DNA from: Candidatus Gottesmanbacteria bacterium | GTDB lineage: Bacteria; Patescibacteriota; Microgenomatia; UBA10105; UBA927 | Assembly (NCBI GenBank): GCA_023245335.1 | Contig: JAHFKK010000001.1 | Span: forward strand, 81,918 to 145,917 | Reading direction: 5' to 3' | Length of the DNA stretch: 64,000 bases | Shown: piece by piece, positions 46,939-53,406 of the stretch | Layout of the letters: every line of letters starts with the position of its first letter | Position numbering within the stretch: the first letter of the stretch is position 1 | Position numbers and translations under genes: made by a program | The notes under the pieces: model-generated | The model's input: the letters and a program-made list of their open reading frames with translations, nothing else | Told to the model about the DNA's origin: nothing | The model's database searches: none

Positions 46939-49176
46939 TTATGATGGTTTCGCCATTGCCTCCAAGACTTGATGATCTCCGAGCTTCATCATCTCAGATG
47001 ATTTATTCAGCTTTTCGAAATCGACGACCTTTTCGGCGATCTTTTCAAAAACCGGATCGTGCGTAATCGCAACCACCGTCATGTCCGGACGGGTTTTCCT
47101 GAGTTCCTGGATAATCGCAAGCACCTGCTGTGCGGACGCCTGGTCCAGATTAGCAGTCGGTTCATCCAAAAATAGTATCTTGGGATCTTTCAGTAACGCG
47201 CGGGCAATCCCTATTCTCCGCAGTTCCCCACCCGAAAAGTGTTTGACCGCCGTATCCAGCCGTGGCGCAAGATGATCTAGCTTCAGATCTTTCAGAAGTA
47301 CTTGCACTTTATCATCTGATATATCCTTTTTGGTCCATAACAGCAAGTTTTCCCGAAGTGTCATCCCATCCATCACTTGCGGCGATTGGTTTGCGTATCC
47401 TATGGCGTTATAAAGTGAATCGTCCCCATACCGCTTCACTTCACTTACGGGAACCCCTCCGTATGTAATACCCCCGCCTTGCGGTGCGTACAGACCGATC
47501 ATCTCGCGGAATAAGGTGCTTTTCCCGATCCCAGACGGTCCTTTGACCGTCACAAACGATCCCTGAGGAATATCAAGGGAAACGTTATGCAAAATATCCT
47601 TAAACGAAACGTTTGAGACTTTGATGTCGTAGTTCGGGAGCTTGGACGCAGCGATTCGCTTCTGTTCCCGGGGACCATTAGGCATCTCCTGTACGTCATA
47701 CGGCCCAAGCAAATCATTCATGCGCTTGATATCCTCAAGTGCCGGGATCACCTGATACGTGTAAAGGTTCGTGAGCTGCATAATGCTGGACTGCAGGTCC
47801 TGCCCAACCATCTTGGCATCGGCAATCATGTTGTACTTACCGTACATATTGAGTAACACATCTCCGACGGGTATTCTGGGATCCTTTCGTATATTTTTAT
47901 AGAGATTAACCCCTTCTATAGCAAAAGGTGCATTATCAATAAGATCCAAAACCGTTTTTACCCACCGCGTACTCGTTTTGTGTTTGCGGAGACCTCCGGA
48001 GAGTATAGTATCCCGGTCTTCGAGCGTCGTCGCCAGGCGCTTCATGCTCTCCTGCGCTCCCCCGGACGTACGTACTGTCTCGAGGTTCCCCAATGTCGCT
48101 GCGAGCCTGGTATTTGCTAAATTCCACATCTCCCGCTCCTGTGTTGTTATGTTGCGATAATCTTTTGCCTGTACCCACGCGTTCGTCCCGATAAGAATCG
48201 ATTTGGCCCAAGCGGCATACGATAGTTTTTTATCGACGATGCCTTGCCGCTGCAAGATACTACCGATATTGACAAGAAGCGGCAGCATATCCGCATACGT
48301 TGTAACGACGAGATTTGCCGTGGACGCCTTGCCCCGATCAATGATGTTGATCATTTCTTCAACCGGCTTGTCATGTAAAAATTCGAAGTCGCGCATGAGG
48401 ATGGAGCGCGTAATACGCGTATTTATCGACTGCTGCAACTTTTGCTGTTCCTTAAAAAAAAGGTTGTCTGCGTACCGACCAGTGACGTTCTCAACCAAAT
48501 ATGAAAGCGGCTGGCTCCAAATGGGCCATGTCGCATCACGAAGAACGGTCATTGCTTTTTTGTTAGTCACCAAATCTTTTACGAAGGACTTTTTCAAAAG
48601 ATCTCCTCCGGTCGTGGCTCCTGCTTCCTTAACCGCGTCGACGACGCCGTCGAGCATACGGAAAATGAGCTGACCATCTTTGTTTGCCCGAACGACGTAT
48701 CCGTCCAAAATGTTGCGCGCCGCAATGTTCCCCGAGTAAATCCCCGACATAAGCCACCACTTCCCTGACCCAAGCTGATACGTTTGGAAAATATCCCCGA
48801 CTGCCTTCCAATACTCATCCAAATCTATTGCCGCCGGTTCATGTGTTTCAACCGGCCGTTCCTGTTTCGGTTTTTCCCCACTTGGAGATGCGGGCGGCGA
48901 CTCACTCATACGGGAAACGGCAGACTGCACATCGGCCGGCGTCACGTCTATACCTTCCTTGTGCAGATCACCAGCCACCGCATTCACCACTTCTTTCACG
49001 TCTTTGGGAGATGCTGAGGCTTCGGATGATTTTTGGGCAAGTTTTGCAGAGGCGACCACCGTATCCGGTGAAAGGACAACCGGCTTCAGAGACTCCACTG
49101 TGCGTGGGGCTTCCGGGCTAATAAGCGGTGCTGCGATAGGCCTCTCAGCAGTCATACTCCTTATTGTAGCGCACAA
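46939..49176 (-). CDS. ABC transporter, fused divergent TMD plus ATPase (type I exporter-like half transporter), paralog 1 of 3.
   Basis: The C-terminal NBD carries Walker A GPSGIGKSTL, the signature FSGGELRRIGIARALL, Walker B ILFLDEPTANLD and the H-loop AITHD. The N-terminal domain of about 480 aa has six weak hydrophobic helices and the family motif ILMRDFEFLHDK. Confidence 0.8.
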   Translation of the reverse strand: MCATIRSMTAERPIAAPLISPEAPRTVESLKPVVLSPDTVVASAKLAQKSSEASASPKDVKEVVNAVAGDLHKEGIDVTPADVQSAVSRMSESPPASPSGEKPKQERPVETHEPAAIDLDEYWKAVGDIFQTYQLGSGKWWLMSGIYSGNIAARNILDGYVVRANKDGQLIFRMLDGVVDAVKEAGATTGGDLLKKSFVKDLVTNKKAMTVLRDATWPIWSQPLSYLVENVTGRYADNLFFKEQQKLQQSINTRITRSILMRDFEFLHDKPVEEMINIIDRGKASTANLVVTTYADMLPLLVNIGSILQRQGIVDKKLSYAAWAKSILIGTNAWVQAKDYRNITTQEREMWNLANTRLAATLGNLETVRTSGGAQESMKRLATTLEDRDTILSGGLRKHKTSTRWVKTVLDLIDNAPFAIEGVNLYKNIRKDPRIPVGDVLLNMYGKYNMIADAKMVGQDLQSSIMQLTNLYTYQVIPALEDIKRMNDLLGPYDVQEMPNGPREQKRIAASKLPNYDIKVSNVSFKDILHNVSLDIPQGSFVTVKGPSGIGKSTLFREMIGLYAPQGGGITYGGVPVSEVKRYGDDSLYNAIGYANQSPQVMDGMTLRENLLLWTKKDISDDKVQVLLKDLKLDHLAPRLDTAVKHFSGGELRRIGIARALLKDPKILFLDEPTANLDQASAQQVLAIIQELRKTRPDMTVVAITHDPVFEKIAEKVVDFEKLNKSSEMMKLGDHQVLEAMAKPS

Positions 49177-49203
49177 CTCCCCGAAGTGGGACTGGTGGAA
49201 ATA

Positions 49204-51183: not shown

Positions 51184-51264
51184 ATGCGATAGGCAGTCGC
51201 CATATTAGCACGTCATATCGGTCTATACAATGTGAAGGGATAGCTGAAATATCGGTGTGGGGAT

Positions 51265-53406
51265 CTAAATTTTTTTCGTATCGGAGGCAGCGTAAAATAC
51301 CTGCCTGTTTCCGAGTGCGGCAGCGTTCTGTTCGGAGGGTTTATTTACTGCACGGAAATCTACAATTTTCTCTGCAATAGCCTCAAAATTCGGGTCGTGA
51401 GTGACGGCAATGACCGTCATGTCCGGATGCTTCTTCCTCATCTCACGGACTATATCCAGAACCTGTTTTGCAGATTCCTCGTCCAAGTTGGAGGTAGGCT
51501 CATCCAAAAATAATACTTTCGGGTCTTTCAGGAGTGCTCTTGCTATCCCGATACGTCGTAGCTCGCCACCTGAAAAATGTTTAACCTTGCTGTCCAGCCG
51601 ATCCGCAATGTGATCCAATTTAAGATCATGGAGCGCTTGCCGCAGCGTGACATCCGATGCTTGTTTTACCGTCCAGAGCTGCAAATTCTCCCGAAGCGTC
51701 ATATTTTCGAAATATTGCGGATTCTGGTTGGCATAGGCAAGCTTTGAGTAAATCGAGTGTTCGCCGTATTTTTTAATACTCCCTAAATCCTTACCGCCGT
51801 ATTGCACGGCGCCCTCCGGTGCCGAAAACAGTCCTAGCATATGCCGCATAAACGTCGTCTTCCCTATTCCTGACGGACCTTTGATCGTCACGAACGCCCC
51901 CTGCGGGATATCCATAGAAACATTATGCAGAATATTTTTAAACTGCAGATTCCGTATCGATATATCAAACCGTTTCAGGTCCTCTACCGGTATTCGTGCT
52001 TTTTCCTTCGGCCCCTCAGGCGTGTCTACCTGGTCAAACGGACCCAATAATTCATCCATCCGTTTTATATCCTGAAGTGCCGGCTGAATCTGATCGGTAT
52101 ATGTGTGCACCATAGATTCGATAACGTTCTTATTTATCATTTCCATCGCATAGGTACTTATCATCGCCGCCGTCACCTGACCTGCAGCGAACCCCTGCTC
52201 ATCCGGTTGAGTGGGATGTATCAATGACTTCGCATGCATGATAGCTTCCCACCCCGCTGCAACAACCGGTATGGCAAATGTATACGCCAAACCGGTCCTG
52301 CCCTGCCGCACGTCTCGGGCGCTCTGCTGTGATTTTGCAAGCTGTTCTACTGTGTCGCTTCTGGCCATATTGTCCTGAAGCTCTTTCATCGCATTTGTCA
52401 TGCTGTCGGTCGTGCGGACCACTTCCAGACTTTGCAGCGACGACAAAATCCTGGCATCGATCAGGTCTTTACGCTTCAGACTTTCTGCACGGTCTTTCAG
52501 AATGTCCCGCGCCATTTGTTCGCTCCCCCGCGCAATCATTGGTATCCGCAATAATGAAATAATTCCGGCAGGAGGCGCAAAAAGCGCCTCAGTTCCGACG
52601 GTCATTCCGACAGTCGCAAGCCCGGGCACGATATCTTTATACGTCGTCCGCATGAGTGCAATCGTTGAGTCTTTGCCCTGATTGACGATATTCATAATTT
52701 CTGACGCAGATTTATCGTGAATAAATTCGAAATCCCGCATAAATACGGACTGGGAAACGCGGGTATTTATGGCACCACGCAGCTTCACGACGCTCTCTTC
52801 AAATTGTTTGTTTACTCGCTCCCCGGTCACAAACGGCGGAATCATTCCAAAAATATACACAAGAGGTAGCGCGCCACGGAGGGTAGCAAGCCCATGTAGT
52901 ATTCGTTTCCCTAATTGCTTTTCGCTTAAAACATGGGCAGCTTCCTTGGCAGTGTATGGTAATCCGGATAAGGAGCTCATACCTGCAAAAGCCAAGTTTA
53001 ACAGGACTGAATTATTCCGTACTTTATGAGCGGCGGCATAAAATTCCGGCGCAACTTCACTTAATTTATACGTTTTCTCAATATCCGACACTGCGCTCTG
53101 ATACGTTTTTAGATCCTTTTGCATCTGCGGTGAAAAAACCTTCTCAAGGGTGCGTTTGCCCGTATCACTGAGTGCTTCTTCTATTTTGTCGCTTATAGAA
53201 CGCTTCGCAGTCTCGGGAATCGGCGCACCGTTAGCAGCAAAATCCTTCGTAATGTCATCAAAAAGTACCTTCATCCCCTGCTTTGCAGCGGCTTTATCGC
53301 CGCTTTGCAGTGCGTCTGCGGCCCGTTGGGAATCAGCAAGAACATCAGGGGCAATTAATTTTGGGGATAATTCCTGTTGCTGTGGACGAGGCTTCAACTG
53401 CTCCAT
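51265..53406 (-). CDS. ABC transporter, fused TMD-NBD, paralog 3 of 3.
   Basis: GPSGIGKTTFM, FSGGELRRIGIARALL, LFLDEPTSNLD, VTHD and VFMRDFEFIHDK, with six hydrophobic segments in the N-terminal domain. Confidence 0.8.
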   Translation of the reverse strand: MEQLKPRPQQQELSPKLIAPDVLADSQRAADALQSGDKAAAKQGMKVLFDDITKDFAANGAPIPETAKRSISDKIEEALSDTGKRTLEKVFSPQMQKDLKTYQSAVSDIEKTYKLSEVAPEFYAAAHKVRNNSVLLNLAFAGMSSLSGLPYTAKEAAHVLSEKQLGKRILHGLATLRGALPLVYIFGMIPPFVTGERVNKQFEESVVKLRGAINTRVSQSVFMRDFEFIHDKSASEIMNIVNQGKDSTIALMRTTYKDIVPGLATVGMTVGTEALFAPPAGIISLLRIPMIARGSEQMARDILKDRAESLKRKDLIDARILSSLQSLEVVRTTDSMTNAMKELQDNMARSDTVEQLAKSQQSARDVRQGRTGLAYTFAIPVVAAGWEAIMHAKSLIHPTQPDEQGFAAGQVTAAMISTYAMEMINKNVIESMVHTYTDQIQPALQDIKRMDELLGPFDQVDTPEGPKEKARIPVEDLKRFDISIRNLQFKNILHNVSMDIPQGAFVTIKGPSGIGKTTFMRHMLGLFSAPEGAVQYGGKDLGSIKKYGEHSIYSKLAYANQNPQYFENMTLRENLQLWTVKQASDVTLRQALHDLKLDHIADRLDSKVKHFSGGELRRIGIARALLKDPKVLFLDEPTSNLDEESAKQVLDIVREMRKKHPDMTVIAVTHDPNFEAIAEKIVDFRAVNKPSEQNAAALGNRQVFYAASDTKKI

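Follow-up and report, generated by a model that had tools for sequence, protein, structure and literature searches.

ABCB-like half-transporters with a polar helical domain at the centre of a conserved orphan-protein array in Gottesmanbacteria

What do three adjoining ABC genes do in the midst of genes for orphan proteins, and do they export the products of these neighbours? The question is raised by a stretch of Candidatus Gottesmanbacteria DNA (contig JAHFKK010000001.1; 64,000 nucleotides, hereafter the window), in which ABC_A, ABC_B and ABC_C are three intact, co-directional open reading frames on the minus strand, at the coordinates given in a first-pass annotation. All three proteins have the same domain order, i.e. 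a short disordered N-terminus, a domain of six long helices and a C-terminal ABC ATPase (NBD), and the genes are separated by gaps of 27 and 81 nt:

51265..53406, minus strand: ABC_C, 713 aa, first ABC gene
53125-53406, minus strand: ABC_C N-terminal extension, residues 1-94
52015-53124, minus strand: ABC_C exporter-like six-helix domain, residues 95-464
52711-52746, minus strand: ABC_C ICL1 motif VFMRDFEFIHDK, residues 221-232
51265-52014, minus strand: ABC_C NBD, residues 465-713
49204..51183, minus strand: ABC_B, 659 aa, middle ABC gene, the one modelled
51055-51183, minus strand: ABC_B disordered N-terminus, residues 1-43
49954-51054, minus strand: ABC_B elbow helix and six long helices, residues 44-410
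50632-50667, minus strand: ABC_B ICL1 motif VFMRDFEFMHDK, residues 173-184
49204-49953, minus strand: ABC_B NBD, residues 411-659
46939..49176, minus strand: ABC_A, 745 aa, TTG start, last ABC gene
48832-49176, minus strand: ABC_A Pro/Ser/Ala/Glu-rich extension, residues 1-115
47677-48831, minus strand: ABC_A helical domain, residues 116-500
48367-48402, minus strand: ABC_A ICL1 motif ILMRDFEFLHDK, residues 259-270
46939-47676, minus strand: ABC_A NBD, residues 501-745

Full-length identity to the first of the three proteins is 39-40%, and the C-terminal third is far more similar. Each has one C-terminal PF00005 (ABC_tran) domain, with an E-value of about 1e-31. The catalytic motifs are complete in all three (Walker A GPSG[IA]GK[ST]T, Q-loop YANQ, signature FSGGE, Walker B [IV]LFLDEPT including the catalytic Glu, and H-loop THD). 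Neither ATP site departs from the consensus. Reading frames, domain matches and identities agree with the earlier description of three paralogous, fused half-transporter-type proteins (helical domain, then NBD) with an FSGGE signature. The reported absence of a C39/PCAT or other accessory domain also agrees with a Pfam search of the three proteins, in which neither a C39 peptidase nor any other Pfam domain was found N-terminal to the helical domain. The motif [IV][FL]MRDFEF[LMI]HDK, which had been described as conserved, was seen in A, B and C and is invariant or nearly so among 30 family members. It had been placed inside the TMD; in the AlphaFold2 (AF2) model it occupies the turn joining predicted helices 2 and 3, and hhalign places it on the canonical ICL1 motif. 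It is the family's form of the canonical ICL1/coupling-helix 1 motif and lies outside the membrane part. Conservation in the family concentrates at the ICD/NBD interface rather than in the far half: ICL1 is kept as N-R-S-FMRDFEFxHDK-E-N-GK, ICL2 as SLQSLEVVKTSD and the TM6-NBD linker as KIQPALQDIKRMEELLGP. A conserved amphipathic segment resembling an elbow helix lies ahead of helix 1.

A, B and C are ABCB-like half-transporters in which six helices of the type I exporter (type IV) fold precede the NBD. AF2 prediction with Foldseek and profile-profile comparison both identify the helical part as a diverged exporter domain. The AF2 model of ABC_B, built on 30 sequences only, had a pLDDT of 75.6 and shows helices at residues 60-98, 119-175, 186-228, 230-281, 288-345 and 350-400, with the NBD downstream. 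Foldseek aligned this model with Atm1, CmABCB1, MsbA, CydDC, PCAT1 and McjD over about 600 columns (E about 1e-18), with TM-scores of 0.42-0.61 by query and 0.47-0.66 by target; since the NBD is only 36% of the chain, such scores are unreachable from the NBD alone. On comparing the family N-domain with canonical exporter TMDs, hhalign gave probabilities of 89-93% (E 5e-8 to 2.5e-6). The expectation that the N-terminal part would fold as a six-helix exporter domain was thus borne out by AF2, Foldseek and hhalign. Matches to PF00664 were sub-threshold (13-19 bits vs a cut-off of 28), and some NCBIfam alignments (CydC, LssB, PrtD) extend into the helical domain.

Membrane character was judged from hydropathy scales. 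The top six 19-residue (KD19) windows score 1.47-0.66 in ABC_A, 1.67-0.76 in ABC_B and 1.62-0.67 in ABC_C, as compared with 2.78-1.76 for four integral membrane proteins and 1.60-0.44 for five soluble enzymes of the same window. Among the best six, 0-1 exceed 1.6 in A, B and C, 4-6 in canonical exporters and all 6 in the membrane proteins of the window. The six expected membrane segments hold a mean of 2.4-4.0 charged residues per 22 residues in 30 family members; the value is 0.8 in canonical exporters, including one from Patescibacteria. These two measures agree in confirming the earlier remark that the helical domain is weakly hydrophobic and far more polar than that of canonical exporters. 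The hydropathy of A, B and C is soluble-like, indistinguishable from that of cytoplasmic enzymes of the same genome. Family members from a search of representative sequences likewise had 0-1, rarely 2, windows above 1.6; only the two weakest matches had three, and both look canonical. In the family average, six damped peaks (0.70-1.55) appear at about residues 81, 138, 222, 237, 330 and 360 of ABC_B, which are the far helix ends.

The family is small, comprising 80 clusters out of 1.84 billion representatives; all named members come from the candidate phyla radiation (CPR). No annotation existed for these half-transporters, which are confined to CPR bacteria. Their polarity does not look like decay, as the family spans 80 clusters, the polar character holds down to an E-value of about 1e-6 and conservation is focused on the ICD/NBD interface. 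A neighbour-joining tree resolved classes A, B and C, which are, judged by their sequences, three old paralogue classes. Class A is present in exactly one copy in every complete array locus, partnered by C, B or both; A+B+C triplets occur in 4 of the 14 loci, the remainder having A with C or A with B. The three co-directional paralogues, which had been described as uncommon, are therefore no local oddity but one arrangement among old classes. Members at a greater distance within the family occur as solitary genes whose surroundings are unrelated, with no S, M, L or s genes and no candidate membrane partner nearby; the polar domain therefore did not evolve for the module described below.

The ABC genes are central in a conserved block of about 17 genes, whose order is pairs of an acidic S and a basic, Gly-rich M gene, then 2-3 ABC genes, then La-sa-Lb-sb-Lc-sb-Lb-Lb. 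In the window, the block and its surroundings contain the following:

56222..56251, minus strand: promoter-like TTGACA-18-TACTAT, between the glutamate dehydrogenase gene and S1
55813..56166, minus strand: S1, S family, small acidic helical protein, 117 aa, pI 4.9
55247..55810, minus strand: M1, Ma family, basic, Gly-rich, 187 aa, pI 9.0, partner of S1
54929..55240, minus strand: S2, 103 aa, pI 4.4; its end overlaps the start of M2 by 4 nt
54429..54932, minus strand: M2, Mb family, 167 aa, pI 9.4, Gly-rich segment WIVTGGAGLGLWYGISHVGVAGMW
54066..54377, minus strand: S3, 103 aa, pI 4.6
53491..54045, minus strand: M3, Mb family, 184 aa, pI 9.7, hydrophobic helix WLALAATTATLAVATVAVV (KD19 1.95)
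45729..46898, minus strand: L1, La family, 389 aa, basic
45478..45732, minus strand: s1, sa family, 84 aa from an internal ATG (MNKK)
44678..45478, minus strand: L2, Lb family, 266 aa
44371..44685, minus strand: s2, sb family, 104 aa; 8-nt overlap with the L2 end
43269..44336, minus strand: L3, Lc family, 355 aa
42995..43288, minus strand: s3, sb family, 97 aa; 20-nt overlap with the L3 end
42039..42953, minus strand: L4, Lb family, 304 aa
41089..41949, minus strand: L5, Lb family, 286 aa
40865..40886, minus strand: terminator-like hairpin and T-run, downstream of L5 and ahead of tRNA-Ala
31003..32051, minus strand: satellite pair outside the array
31350-32051, minus strand: glycine-zipper-rich protein, 233 aa, first of the satellite pair
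31003-31341, minus strand: fourth S-family gene (S profile E 4e-25)

Start and stop codons overlap within S-M and L-s pairs, and the s1 gene overlaps the stop of L1 with its start and the start of L2 with its stop. The S proteins have a pI of 4.4-5.1, while M and most L proteins are basic and L2 is near neutral (7.9). None of the accessory proteins matches any known family, L1 having no match in Pfam, NCBIfam or PADLOC, and no signal-peptide-like segment was seen at the N-terminus of any of them in the array sequences. The AF2 model of L5 is all-alpha and confident (pLDDT 82.9, pTM 0.76), with no significant match in the PDB. Strongly hydrophobic helices are limited to M3 within the module and M4 of the satellite outside it. 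The promoter-like site may possibly mark the start of an array transcript, though the evidence is weak, such sites being no more frequent in the region than expected by chance; the hairpin is a similarly weak candidate for its end.

The array order was found in 14 distinct loci, in which ABC N-domain identity falls to 31-44%. The genes are co-directional, with tight or overlapping spacing, and the ABC genes always stand between the S/M and L/s blocks. Outer flanks differ in loci L005 and L015-L019 with the order kept, and toxin-antitoxin modules are inserted between array genes in some loci, many of them in L005. This synteny gives good support to a functional link between the ABC genes and the "cassette" and "large/small" modules on either side, since the neighbours are retained around the orthologues of Gottesmanbacteria relatives; the distant, solo members have unrelated contexts. 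Of the earlier claim that the ABC proteins export their neighbours' products, the link has thus stood; the export part had been inferred, sits poorly with the soluble-like hydropathy, and is at present no more than plausible. The L and M proteins are conserved orthologues whose order does not vary, instead of variable cargo, and a multi-subunit machine would account for this no less well than secreted products would.

The preferred reading, to which a probability of roughly 0.4 is given, is that A, B and C are putative polar motors that energise the module and handle or translocate its basic M and La/Lb/Lc proteins. Because the NBD/helical-domain interface is strongly conserved, the helical bundle probably still moves in step with ATP binding and hydrolysis. 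Phylogeny and gene counts suggest heterodimers as working units, an A-type protein pairing with a C-type or B-type partner; with A always present, A·C and A·B motors would be available here as alternatives, each with two consensus ATP sites. Conserved, translationally coupled synteny suggests that they form the energising core of an operon-like orphan-protein module of roughly 15 kb. Their clients would be the signal-peptide-less basic proteins, namely Gly-rich M and alpha-helical La, Lb and Lc; S and s, which are small and acidic or helical, may chaperone these clients specifically or serve them as adaptors. In this reading the motors would lie at, or shallowly in, the cytoplasmic membrane, held there by what remains of a hydrophobic belt, a narrow zone at the bundle's far end.

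A non-membrane role is a serious rival to export, even if it is judged somewhat unlikely. Here the exporter-fold ATPases would be soluble or peripheral and use the polar bundle as an ATP-driven clamp, chaperone or assembly factor, with the S/M and L/s proteins as clients, met either in the cytoplasm or on the surface of the membrane, and no translocation. The hydropathy, far below that of membrane proteins of the same genome, the 2.4-4 charges in each predicted "TM" segment and the scarcity of windows above 1.6 across the family all favour it, as do the near absence of strongly hydrophobic helices from the module, the ancient and maintained polarity with conservation on the transmission interface, and the solo members that have no candidate membrane partner nearby. 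Against this, we know of no soluble protein with the ABC exporter TMD fold, and the six hydrophobic maxima remain exactly at the far helix ends, and an elbow-like segment precedes helix 1; both features would suit a remnant of contact with the membrane. Helices of marginal hydrophobicity are able to insert co-operatively, and hydropathy scales are crude predictors. The membrane-bound reading has its own difficulty: the TMDs of PCAT1/ComA and HlyB/PrtD/LssB-type exporters are normally hydrophobic and, to our knowledge, no protein-exporting ABC of the PCAT1 or HlyB type is polar like A, B and C, so that polarity as a consequence of moving proteins is without precedent.

It is improbable that A, B and C are ordinary small-molecule or lipid exporters (multidrug or CydDC-like thiol) whose synteny with the S, M, L and s genes is accidental. 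The best NBD matches in NCBIfam and among PDB sequences are indeed CydC/CydD and ABCB1-type exporters, JGI annotators have named homologues "cytochrome bd biosynthesis" or "multidrug" ABC, and distant members are solo; the upstream glutamate dehydrogenase, thioredoxin reductase and copper genes common to many array loci likewise show that close relatives are syntenic in general. However, the NCBIfam scores (133-144 bits, mostly from the NBD) are well short of the CydC/CydD cut-offs of 329-435, no cydAB was adjacent among the neighbouring genes checked, the tight array survives differing flanks and toxin-antitoxin insertions, and export of hydrophobic drugs or lipids would need a hydrophobic TMD. 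Less probable still is a conflict system, i.e. a toxin/immunity or anti-phage island with the ABC ATPases as sensors or effectors. ABC-type ATPases occur in some defence systems, and glycine-zipper-like segments, present in M proteins, are known from some pore-forming effectors; the acidic-small/basic-larger pairs recall toxin-immunity or chaperone-effector pairs, and L005 is interleaved with toxin-antitoxin modules. The PADLOC models mad3, mad8, AriA and LmuB match the ABC proteins with E-values down to 4e-30, but through the generic NBD only, and no PADLOC model matches an accessory protein. Moreover, the components are one-to-one orthologues in fixed order across species rather than polymorphic cassettes, and a search for nuclease, protease and other effector domains found none.

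Among known systems, ABCB-type half-transporters (Atm1, MsbA, Sav1866-like, CmABCB1; PF00664 + PF00005) share with A, B and C the order of helical domain and NBD, six long predicted helices, the ICL1/ICL2 turns, the elbow helix, the full NBD motif set and profile-profile homology in the helical domain, and they are the top structural matches (TM 0.55-0.66). The family differs from them in a helical domain below the PF00664 cut-off, six polar membrane segments, RLDSxVKH in place of a TEVGERG-like sequence at the X-loop position, the FSGGE signature, a conserved tail LGxRQVFxA and its CPR-only distribution. CydDC, the thiol reductant/heme exporter (TIGR02857/TIGR02868), gave the top NCBIfam matches (E 1e-38 to 1e-42), and its structures are among the Foldseek matches; its two half-transporters, paralogues with adjacent genes, form a heterodimer, as those of this family may. 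Unlike in CydDC, the helical domain is polar, both ATP sites are consensus and cytochrome bd genes are lacking nearby. The peptide/protein exporters PCAT1 and ComA (TIGR01193) of monoderm bacteria and the type I secretion ABCs HlyB/PrtD/LssB are half-transporters that adjoin their own leader-dependent, Sec-independent protein substrates; they are the functional analogy behind the earlier export proposal. PCAT1 and ComA are among the structural and sequence matches, though A, B and C have no C39 peptidase or C39-like domain and score far under the family cut-offs, and no membrane-fusion or outer-membrane partner is found nearby. T3SS class I chaperones and T6SS Eag chaperones form chaperone-effector pairs, Eag shielding effector TM helices, and the glycine-zipper toxins of Caulobacter Cdz are exported by an ABC protein. 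The module components have no detected sequence or structural similarity to these, are conserved orthologues rather than polymorphic, and are unaccompanied by T3SS, T6SS or T7SS core genes. The resemblance is one of analogy: in the module, translation couples small, acidic, helical proteins to larger and basic ones, which have Gly-rich or hydrophobic helices; signal peptides are absent, and the block also encodes an ATPase.

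Three ABC genes, ABC_C, ABC_B and ABC_A (C, B and A, in order of transcription), lie one behind the other on the minus strand of the window. The first-pass annotation had taken them for real, co-directional paralogs at these coordinates, each with an FSGGE signature and free of a C39 peptidase or other accessory domain, and the Pfam and motif searches bear this out.

ABC genes and their C-terminal tails
51265-53406, minus strand: ABC_C, intact open reading frame of 713 aa
49204-51183, minus strand: ABC_B, intact open reading frame of 659 aa
46939-49176, minus strand: ABC_A, intact open reading frame of 745 aa, TTG start
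~51265-51315, ~49204-49255 and ~46939-46985, minus strand: conserved C-terminal tails of C, B and A, pLDDT <50 in the model

The spacers measure 81 nt (C-B) and 27 nt (B-A). Measured against the first protein, full-length identity amounts to 39-40%, with much higher values in the C-terminal third. A single PF00005 ABC_tran domain was found at the C-terminus of A, B and C (E ~1e-31; 107-110 bits against a Pfam cut-off of 25), and the motifs of this C-terminal ABC ATPase domain (NBD) are complete in all three, namely GPSG[IA]GK[ST]T, YANQ, FSGGE, [IV]LFLDEPT with the catalytic Glu, [SA]NLD and THD. The proteins thus carry every feature by which the ABC ATPase superfamily is recognized (Walker A, Q-loop, signature, Walker B Glu, D-loop, H-loop and a score above threshold). 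Peptidase_C39 gave no match in Pfam at E up to 0.1, and no accessory domain was found there. The tail that follows the NBD reads LGNRQVFYAA in B and C and LGDHQVLEAM in A, is near-invariant across the family and may be a partner-docking motif.

The fold of the N-terminal helical domain (N-domain) was predicted with AlphaFold2 (AF2) for B, using an alignment of 30 family sequences (pLDDT 75.6). In the model, the N-terminus is disordered and a short helix (44-57) precedes six long ones of 39-58 residues (60-98, 119-175, 186-228, 230-281, 288-345 and 350-400), after which comes the NBD; the predicted structure therefore has the six-long-helix domain with two coupling loops upstream of the NBD that marks the type IV fold. 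Foldseek against the PDB matched exclusively type I/type IV-fold ABC exporters (Atm1, CmABCB1, MsbA, CydDC, TM287/288, PCAT1 and McjD), with E ~1e-18 over ~600 aligned columns and TM-scores of 0.42-0.61 by query and 0.47-0.66 by target. As the NBD makes up 36% of the chain, such scores are unattainable from the NBD alone. When the N-domain alignment of the family was compared with that of 20 canonical exporter transmembrane domains, hhalign gave a probability of 89-93% (E 5e-8 to 2.5e-6). Direct profile matches were weak: A and B scored 13.1 and 18.9 bits against the PF00664 ABC_membrane cut-off of 28, C gave no PF00664 match with E up to 0.1, and the NCBIfam alignments of CydC, LssB and PrtD reach into the helical domain with scores far under the family cut-offs. 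The fold check proposed in the first-pass annotation thus came out positive at the level of prediction.

The motif [IV][FL]MRDFEF[LMI]HDK was found in A, B and C and is invariant or nearly so among 30 homologues. It had been reported as a conserved element of the membrane domain; its conservation holds, but its place is different, since the hhalign alignment and the helix boundaries put it at coupling helix 1 of ICL1, in the turn between helix 2 and helix 3. MRDFEFxHDK is thus the family counterpart of the canonical ICL1 motif and not a motif of the membrane part. The other conservation hot spots are ICL2 (SLQSLEVVKTSD), the TM6-NBD linker (KIQPALQDIKRMEELLGP) and the segment RLDSxVKH, which stands just ahead of the signature, in the usual position of the exporter X-loop. 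Hence, the transmission interface between NBD and helical domain has been kept on both sides, in a family-specific form. A, B and C descend from ABCB-type half-transporters and would work like them.

The hydropathy of this domain is that of a soluble protein. When the best six 19-residue hydropathy windows (KD19) were taken, 27 family members had none or one above 1.6, as against four to six in most of 21 canonical PF00664 exporters (one had three; the set includes one from Patescibacteria). The ranked means were 1.65, 1.28, 1.11, 0.98, 0.82 and 0.61 in the family, compared with 2.55 down to 1.37 in the canonical set. Within the window, all six values lay at 1.76-2.78 in four integral membrane proteins (DUF2298, DsbD_2, EamA-like and PMT_2) and at 0.44-1.60 in five soluble enzymes, and A, B and C (0.66-1.67) fall in the soluble range. 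In the far ends of the helices, where the six membrane segments are expected, the average for 30 aligned members is 2.4-4.0 charged residues per 22-residue segment, against 0.8 in canonical exporters, and the Eisenberg mean hydrophobicity is 0.11-0.37, against 0.64. By these scales, A, B and C lack six hydrophobic membrane-spanning segments, and the earlier description of an atypical, weakly hydrophobic domain is upheld. The family-average profile still has six narrow peaks (0.70-1.55) at the far ends of the helices and deep minima in the intracellular parts, so that the exporter pattern is damped and not erased. A compositional effect of CPR proteomes was ruled out, as the canonical Patescibacteria exporter P0058 and the four membrane proteins of the window are normally hydrophobic.

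A profile of the N-domain only was searched against 1.84 billion cluster representatives and retrieved 80 proteins at E up to 1e-3, with canonical exporters not among them. Nearly all are 720-840 aa long and equally polar; only the two weakest matches look canonical. A reading as pseudogenes or decaying genes is ruled out by the intact reading frames, the retained catalytic motifs, the presence of the trait in 80 clusters and the strongly conserved interface. All source names and record titles that bear a lineage were CPR (Gottesmanbacteria, Peregrinibacteria, 'Patescibacteria group'), apart from five metagenome-assembled records with the module (L011, L013, L016, L017 and L020 among the loci fetched for comparison) that are titled 'uncultured Gammaproteobacteria bacterium'. 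This title is probably a mislabel, because their gene content is common to Gottesmanbacteria and Patescibacteria assemblies.

All ABC copies were placed in a neighbour-joining tree, which resolved three old classes. The A class occupies the last position, exactly once per complete array, and is preceded by a C-type gene, a B-type gene (L004, L019) or both. Three co-directional paralogs had been noted as an uncommon arrangement; the paralogs are there, but they are not a local oddity, as they belong to the three old classes and the full triplet occurs in 4 of 14 loci (the window, L008/L011, L013 and L018). Recent tandem triplication was ruled out by the tree and by the B-type genes in first position of two-gene loci. 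In the simplest reading, inferred from gene counts and phylogeny, an obligate A subunit would have two alternative partners, giving A·C and A·B heterodimers.

The ABC genes stand in the middle of a longer array, whose products were sorted into families by clustering and HMM searches over the fetched loci: S (small, acidic, helical), Ma/Mb/Mc (their basic, Gly-rich M partners), the larger La, Lb and Lc, the small L partners sa/sb, and X250, which is absent from the window.

Array and adjoining RNA genes
56166 down to 53491, minus strand: S1-M1, S2-M2, S3-M3, in transcription order, followed by the ABC genes C, B and A
46898 down to 41089, minus strand: L1-s1-L2-s2-L3-s3-L4-L5, after the ABC genes and before the tRNA-Ala and 23S/5S rRNA genes
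40716-40788, minus strand: tRNA-Ala, within the rRNA locus 36503-40788
36759-40356, minus strand: 23S rRNA with two group I introns (37060-37364 and 38105-38335)
36503-36619, minus strand: 5S rRNA

In 14 distinct loci, all of one CPR lineage, the order is (S-M)n, sometimes X250-sb, two or three ABC genes and La-sa-Lb-sb-Lc-sb-Lb-Lb. This order is kept where the ABC N-domains share 31-44% identity, where the outer flanks differ or where toxin-antitoxin genes have been inserted. The positional link between the ABC genes and their neighbours, from which the first-pass annotation had suggested export of the neighbouring products, is thus borne out in these 14 loci; it does not extend to the distant family members L006, L009 and L010, each a lone gene whose surroundings are unrelated and have no S, L or s gene. 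Start and stop codons overlap in many S-M and L-s pairs. A scan for promoters and terminators gave plausible sites at the array borders, in numbers equal to chance expectation.

Some loci vary the array. X250, a 250-aa orphan, and an sb-family protein directly precede the first ABC gene in L001 (8923-9961), L008 (6730-7771), L013, L014 and L018, and separate the two ABC genes of L005 and L017; the pair is missing from the window. In L008, a further orphan of 254 aa stands between the B-type and the A-type gene. In L005 (Gottesmanbacteria GCA_016218205.1, JACREO010000018.1, 1-22244), the array of S, Mc, ABC, X250, sb, ABC and La is broken up by many toxin-antitoxin modules (HEPN/MNT pairs, PIN, ParE, AbiEii, HepT), with its components still kept.

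The S proteins are acidic (pI 4.4-5.1), the M proteins basic and the L proteins mostly basic (L2 is near neutral, 7.9). A clearly hydrophobic helix was seen among the accessory proteins in M3 alone, and no S, M, L or s protein of the array has an N-terminal segment resembling a signal peptide. Searches of these proteins against Pfam, NCBIfam and PADLOC gave nothing above noise, and profile searches of the PDB with the S family (profile A5) and the Lb family (profile A4) gave chance-level matches (E >= 0.011). Profile-profile comparison among the families linked only sa with sb (94%) and Mb with Mc (96%); S-sb reached 21%, and La, Lb and Lc are mutually unrelated at this sensitivity. The AF2 model of L5 is confident and all-alpha, and Foldseek found no counterpart in the PDB (best E 0.77, TM <= 0.22). 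Matches of L5 to ClyA-family pore-forming toxins (PaxB, SmhA, NheA) had probabilities <= 0.04, which is noise level, and were therefore not used as evidence.

Further features of the window were noted. The rRNA locus, directly downstream of the module end, has no adjacent 16S rRNA gene. About 10 kb outside the array, a satellite pair (31003-32051, minus strand) encodes a 233-aa M-like protein, whose C-terminal half is very glycine-rich and made of GxxxG repeats (16% Gly, KD19 1.73), and directly after it a fourth S-family protein (112 aa, S profile E 4e-25), in the reverse of the array order. Upstream of the array (56269-61196, minus strand) are genes for a DsbD_2-cupredoxin protein, a thioredoxin reductase, an NAD_binding_1 oxidoreductase and glutamate dehydrogenase, a block that seems to serve redox and copper homeostasis. 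The closest relatives (L001, L003, L004, L008) share this synteny and also encode an HMA protein, a thioredoxin and, together with a CsoR-like repressor, a copper P-type ATPase; in more distant array loci the block is not kept. Two adjoining ORFs of 571 and 588 aa (18462-21919, plus strand), flanked by an amine-oxidase-like gene and a gene for a PMT_2 glycosyltransferase, have the typical size of ABC exporters but are not such; Pfam returned nothing for them with E up to 1e-3.

The predicted exporter fold, the full set of NBD motifs, the conserved coupling interface, the soluble-like hydropathy with its residual apical belt and the conserved module can be read together in more than one way. 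In the reading we prefer, with a probability of roughly 40%, A·C and A·B heterodimers would act as motors that energize the module and handle or translocate the M and L proteins, which lack signal peptides, with S and s serving as chaperones or adaptors; the motors would sit at the membrane or shallowly in it. Its main rival, which we consider rather unlikely, holds that the family has ceased to be an integral transporter and acts as a soluble or peripheral ATP-driven clamp on its module partners. The hydropathy data favor such a clamp; the residual belt of six peaks speaks against it, as does the lack of any known precedent.

A broader form of this departure from the membrane, to which we give only tentative and somewhat doubtful credence, would make the family CPR-wide soluble or peripheral ATPases that retain the six-helix architecture and the NBD coupling but are polar on the outside. 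The A·C and A·B heterodimers of Gottesmanbacteria would then power the assembly or the delivery of an apparatus of 14 orphan proteins (Gly-zipper M, alpha-helical L and small chaperones), possibly a device of these episymbionts that acts on the host membrane. A generic small-molecule exporter with accidental neighbours fits the data less well and is improbable. A defence or toxin island, also a poorer fit, is very improbable; PADLOC returned no full defence system, its matches being restricted to the NBD (mad3, mad8, AriA, LmuB), and seven accessory proteins gave no match. To our knowledge, a transporter-type helical domain is confined to those ABC proteins that are integral to the membrane; ABCE/ABCF, UvrA and SMC/Rad50, the soluble ATPases of the superfamily, are without one. 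In the present family, the exporter fold and its NBD-coupling interface have been kept over long evolution with 'membrane' segments as polar as cytoplasmic enzymes. Either the fold can insert and function in a bilayer at a much lower hydrophobicity than had been supposed, or it has been re-used outside the membrane; both outcomes are of interest to ABC-transporter biologists and directly testable with three clonable genes, and the membrane-detached one, if true, would be close to categorically new. With ~17 genes and ~15 kb, the module takes up over 1% of a 1.2-Mb genome and consists nearly entirely of orphan proteins; that a streamlined genome devotes so much room to it suggests a lineage-specific function of importance. 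No description of the ABC family or the module was found in the searchable literature, an absence that is not proof.

A, B and C fall outside the PF00664 threshold, the pattern of six hydrophobic spans and every specific subfamily tested, namely CydDC, PCAT, type I secretion and degenerate-site heterodimers. They scored 132-144 bits against the CydDC cut-offs of 329-435 (TIGR02857, TIGR02868), and no cytochrome bd genes were seen in the window region examined or in related loci. Against the type I secretion models PrtD (TIGR01842) and LssB (TIGR03375), the scores were 93-122 bits, with cut-offs of 510-693, and no neighbouring ORF belongs to the HlyD/MFP family. Degenerate-site heterodimers of the TM287/288, TmrAB and EfrCD type have a non-consensus catalytic Glu or H-loop in one subunit and a degenerate signature in the partner, whereas the Walker B Glu, H-loop His and signature are consensus and alike in A, B and C, so that all their ATP sites are consensus. 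The PCAT models gave 95-103 bits against a cut-off of 524 (TIGR01193) and 94-101 against 853 (TIGR03796); where PCATs carry an N-terminal C39 or C39-like domain, A, B and C have disordered N-terminal extensions instead, as judged from the AF2 model of B.
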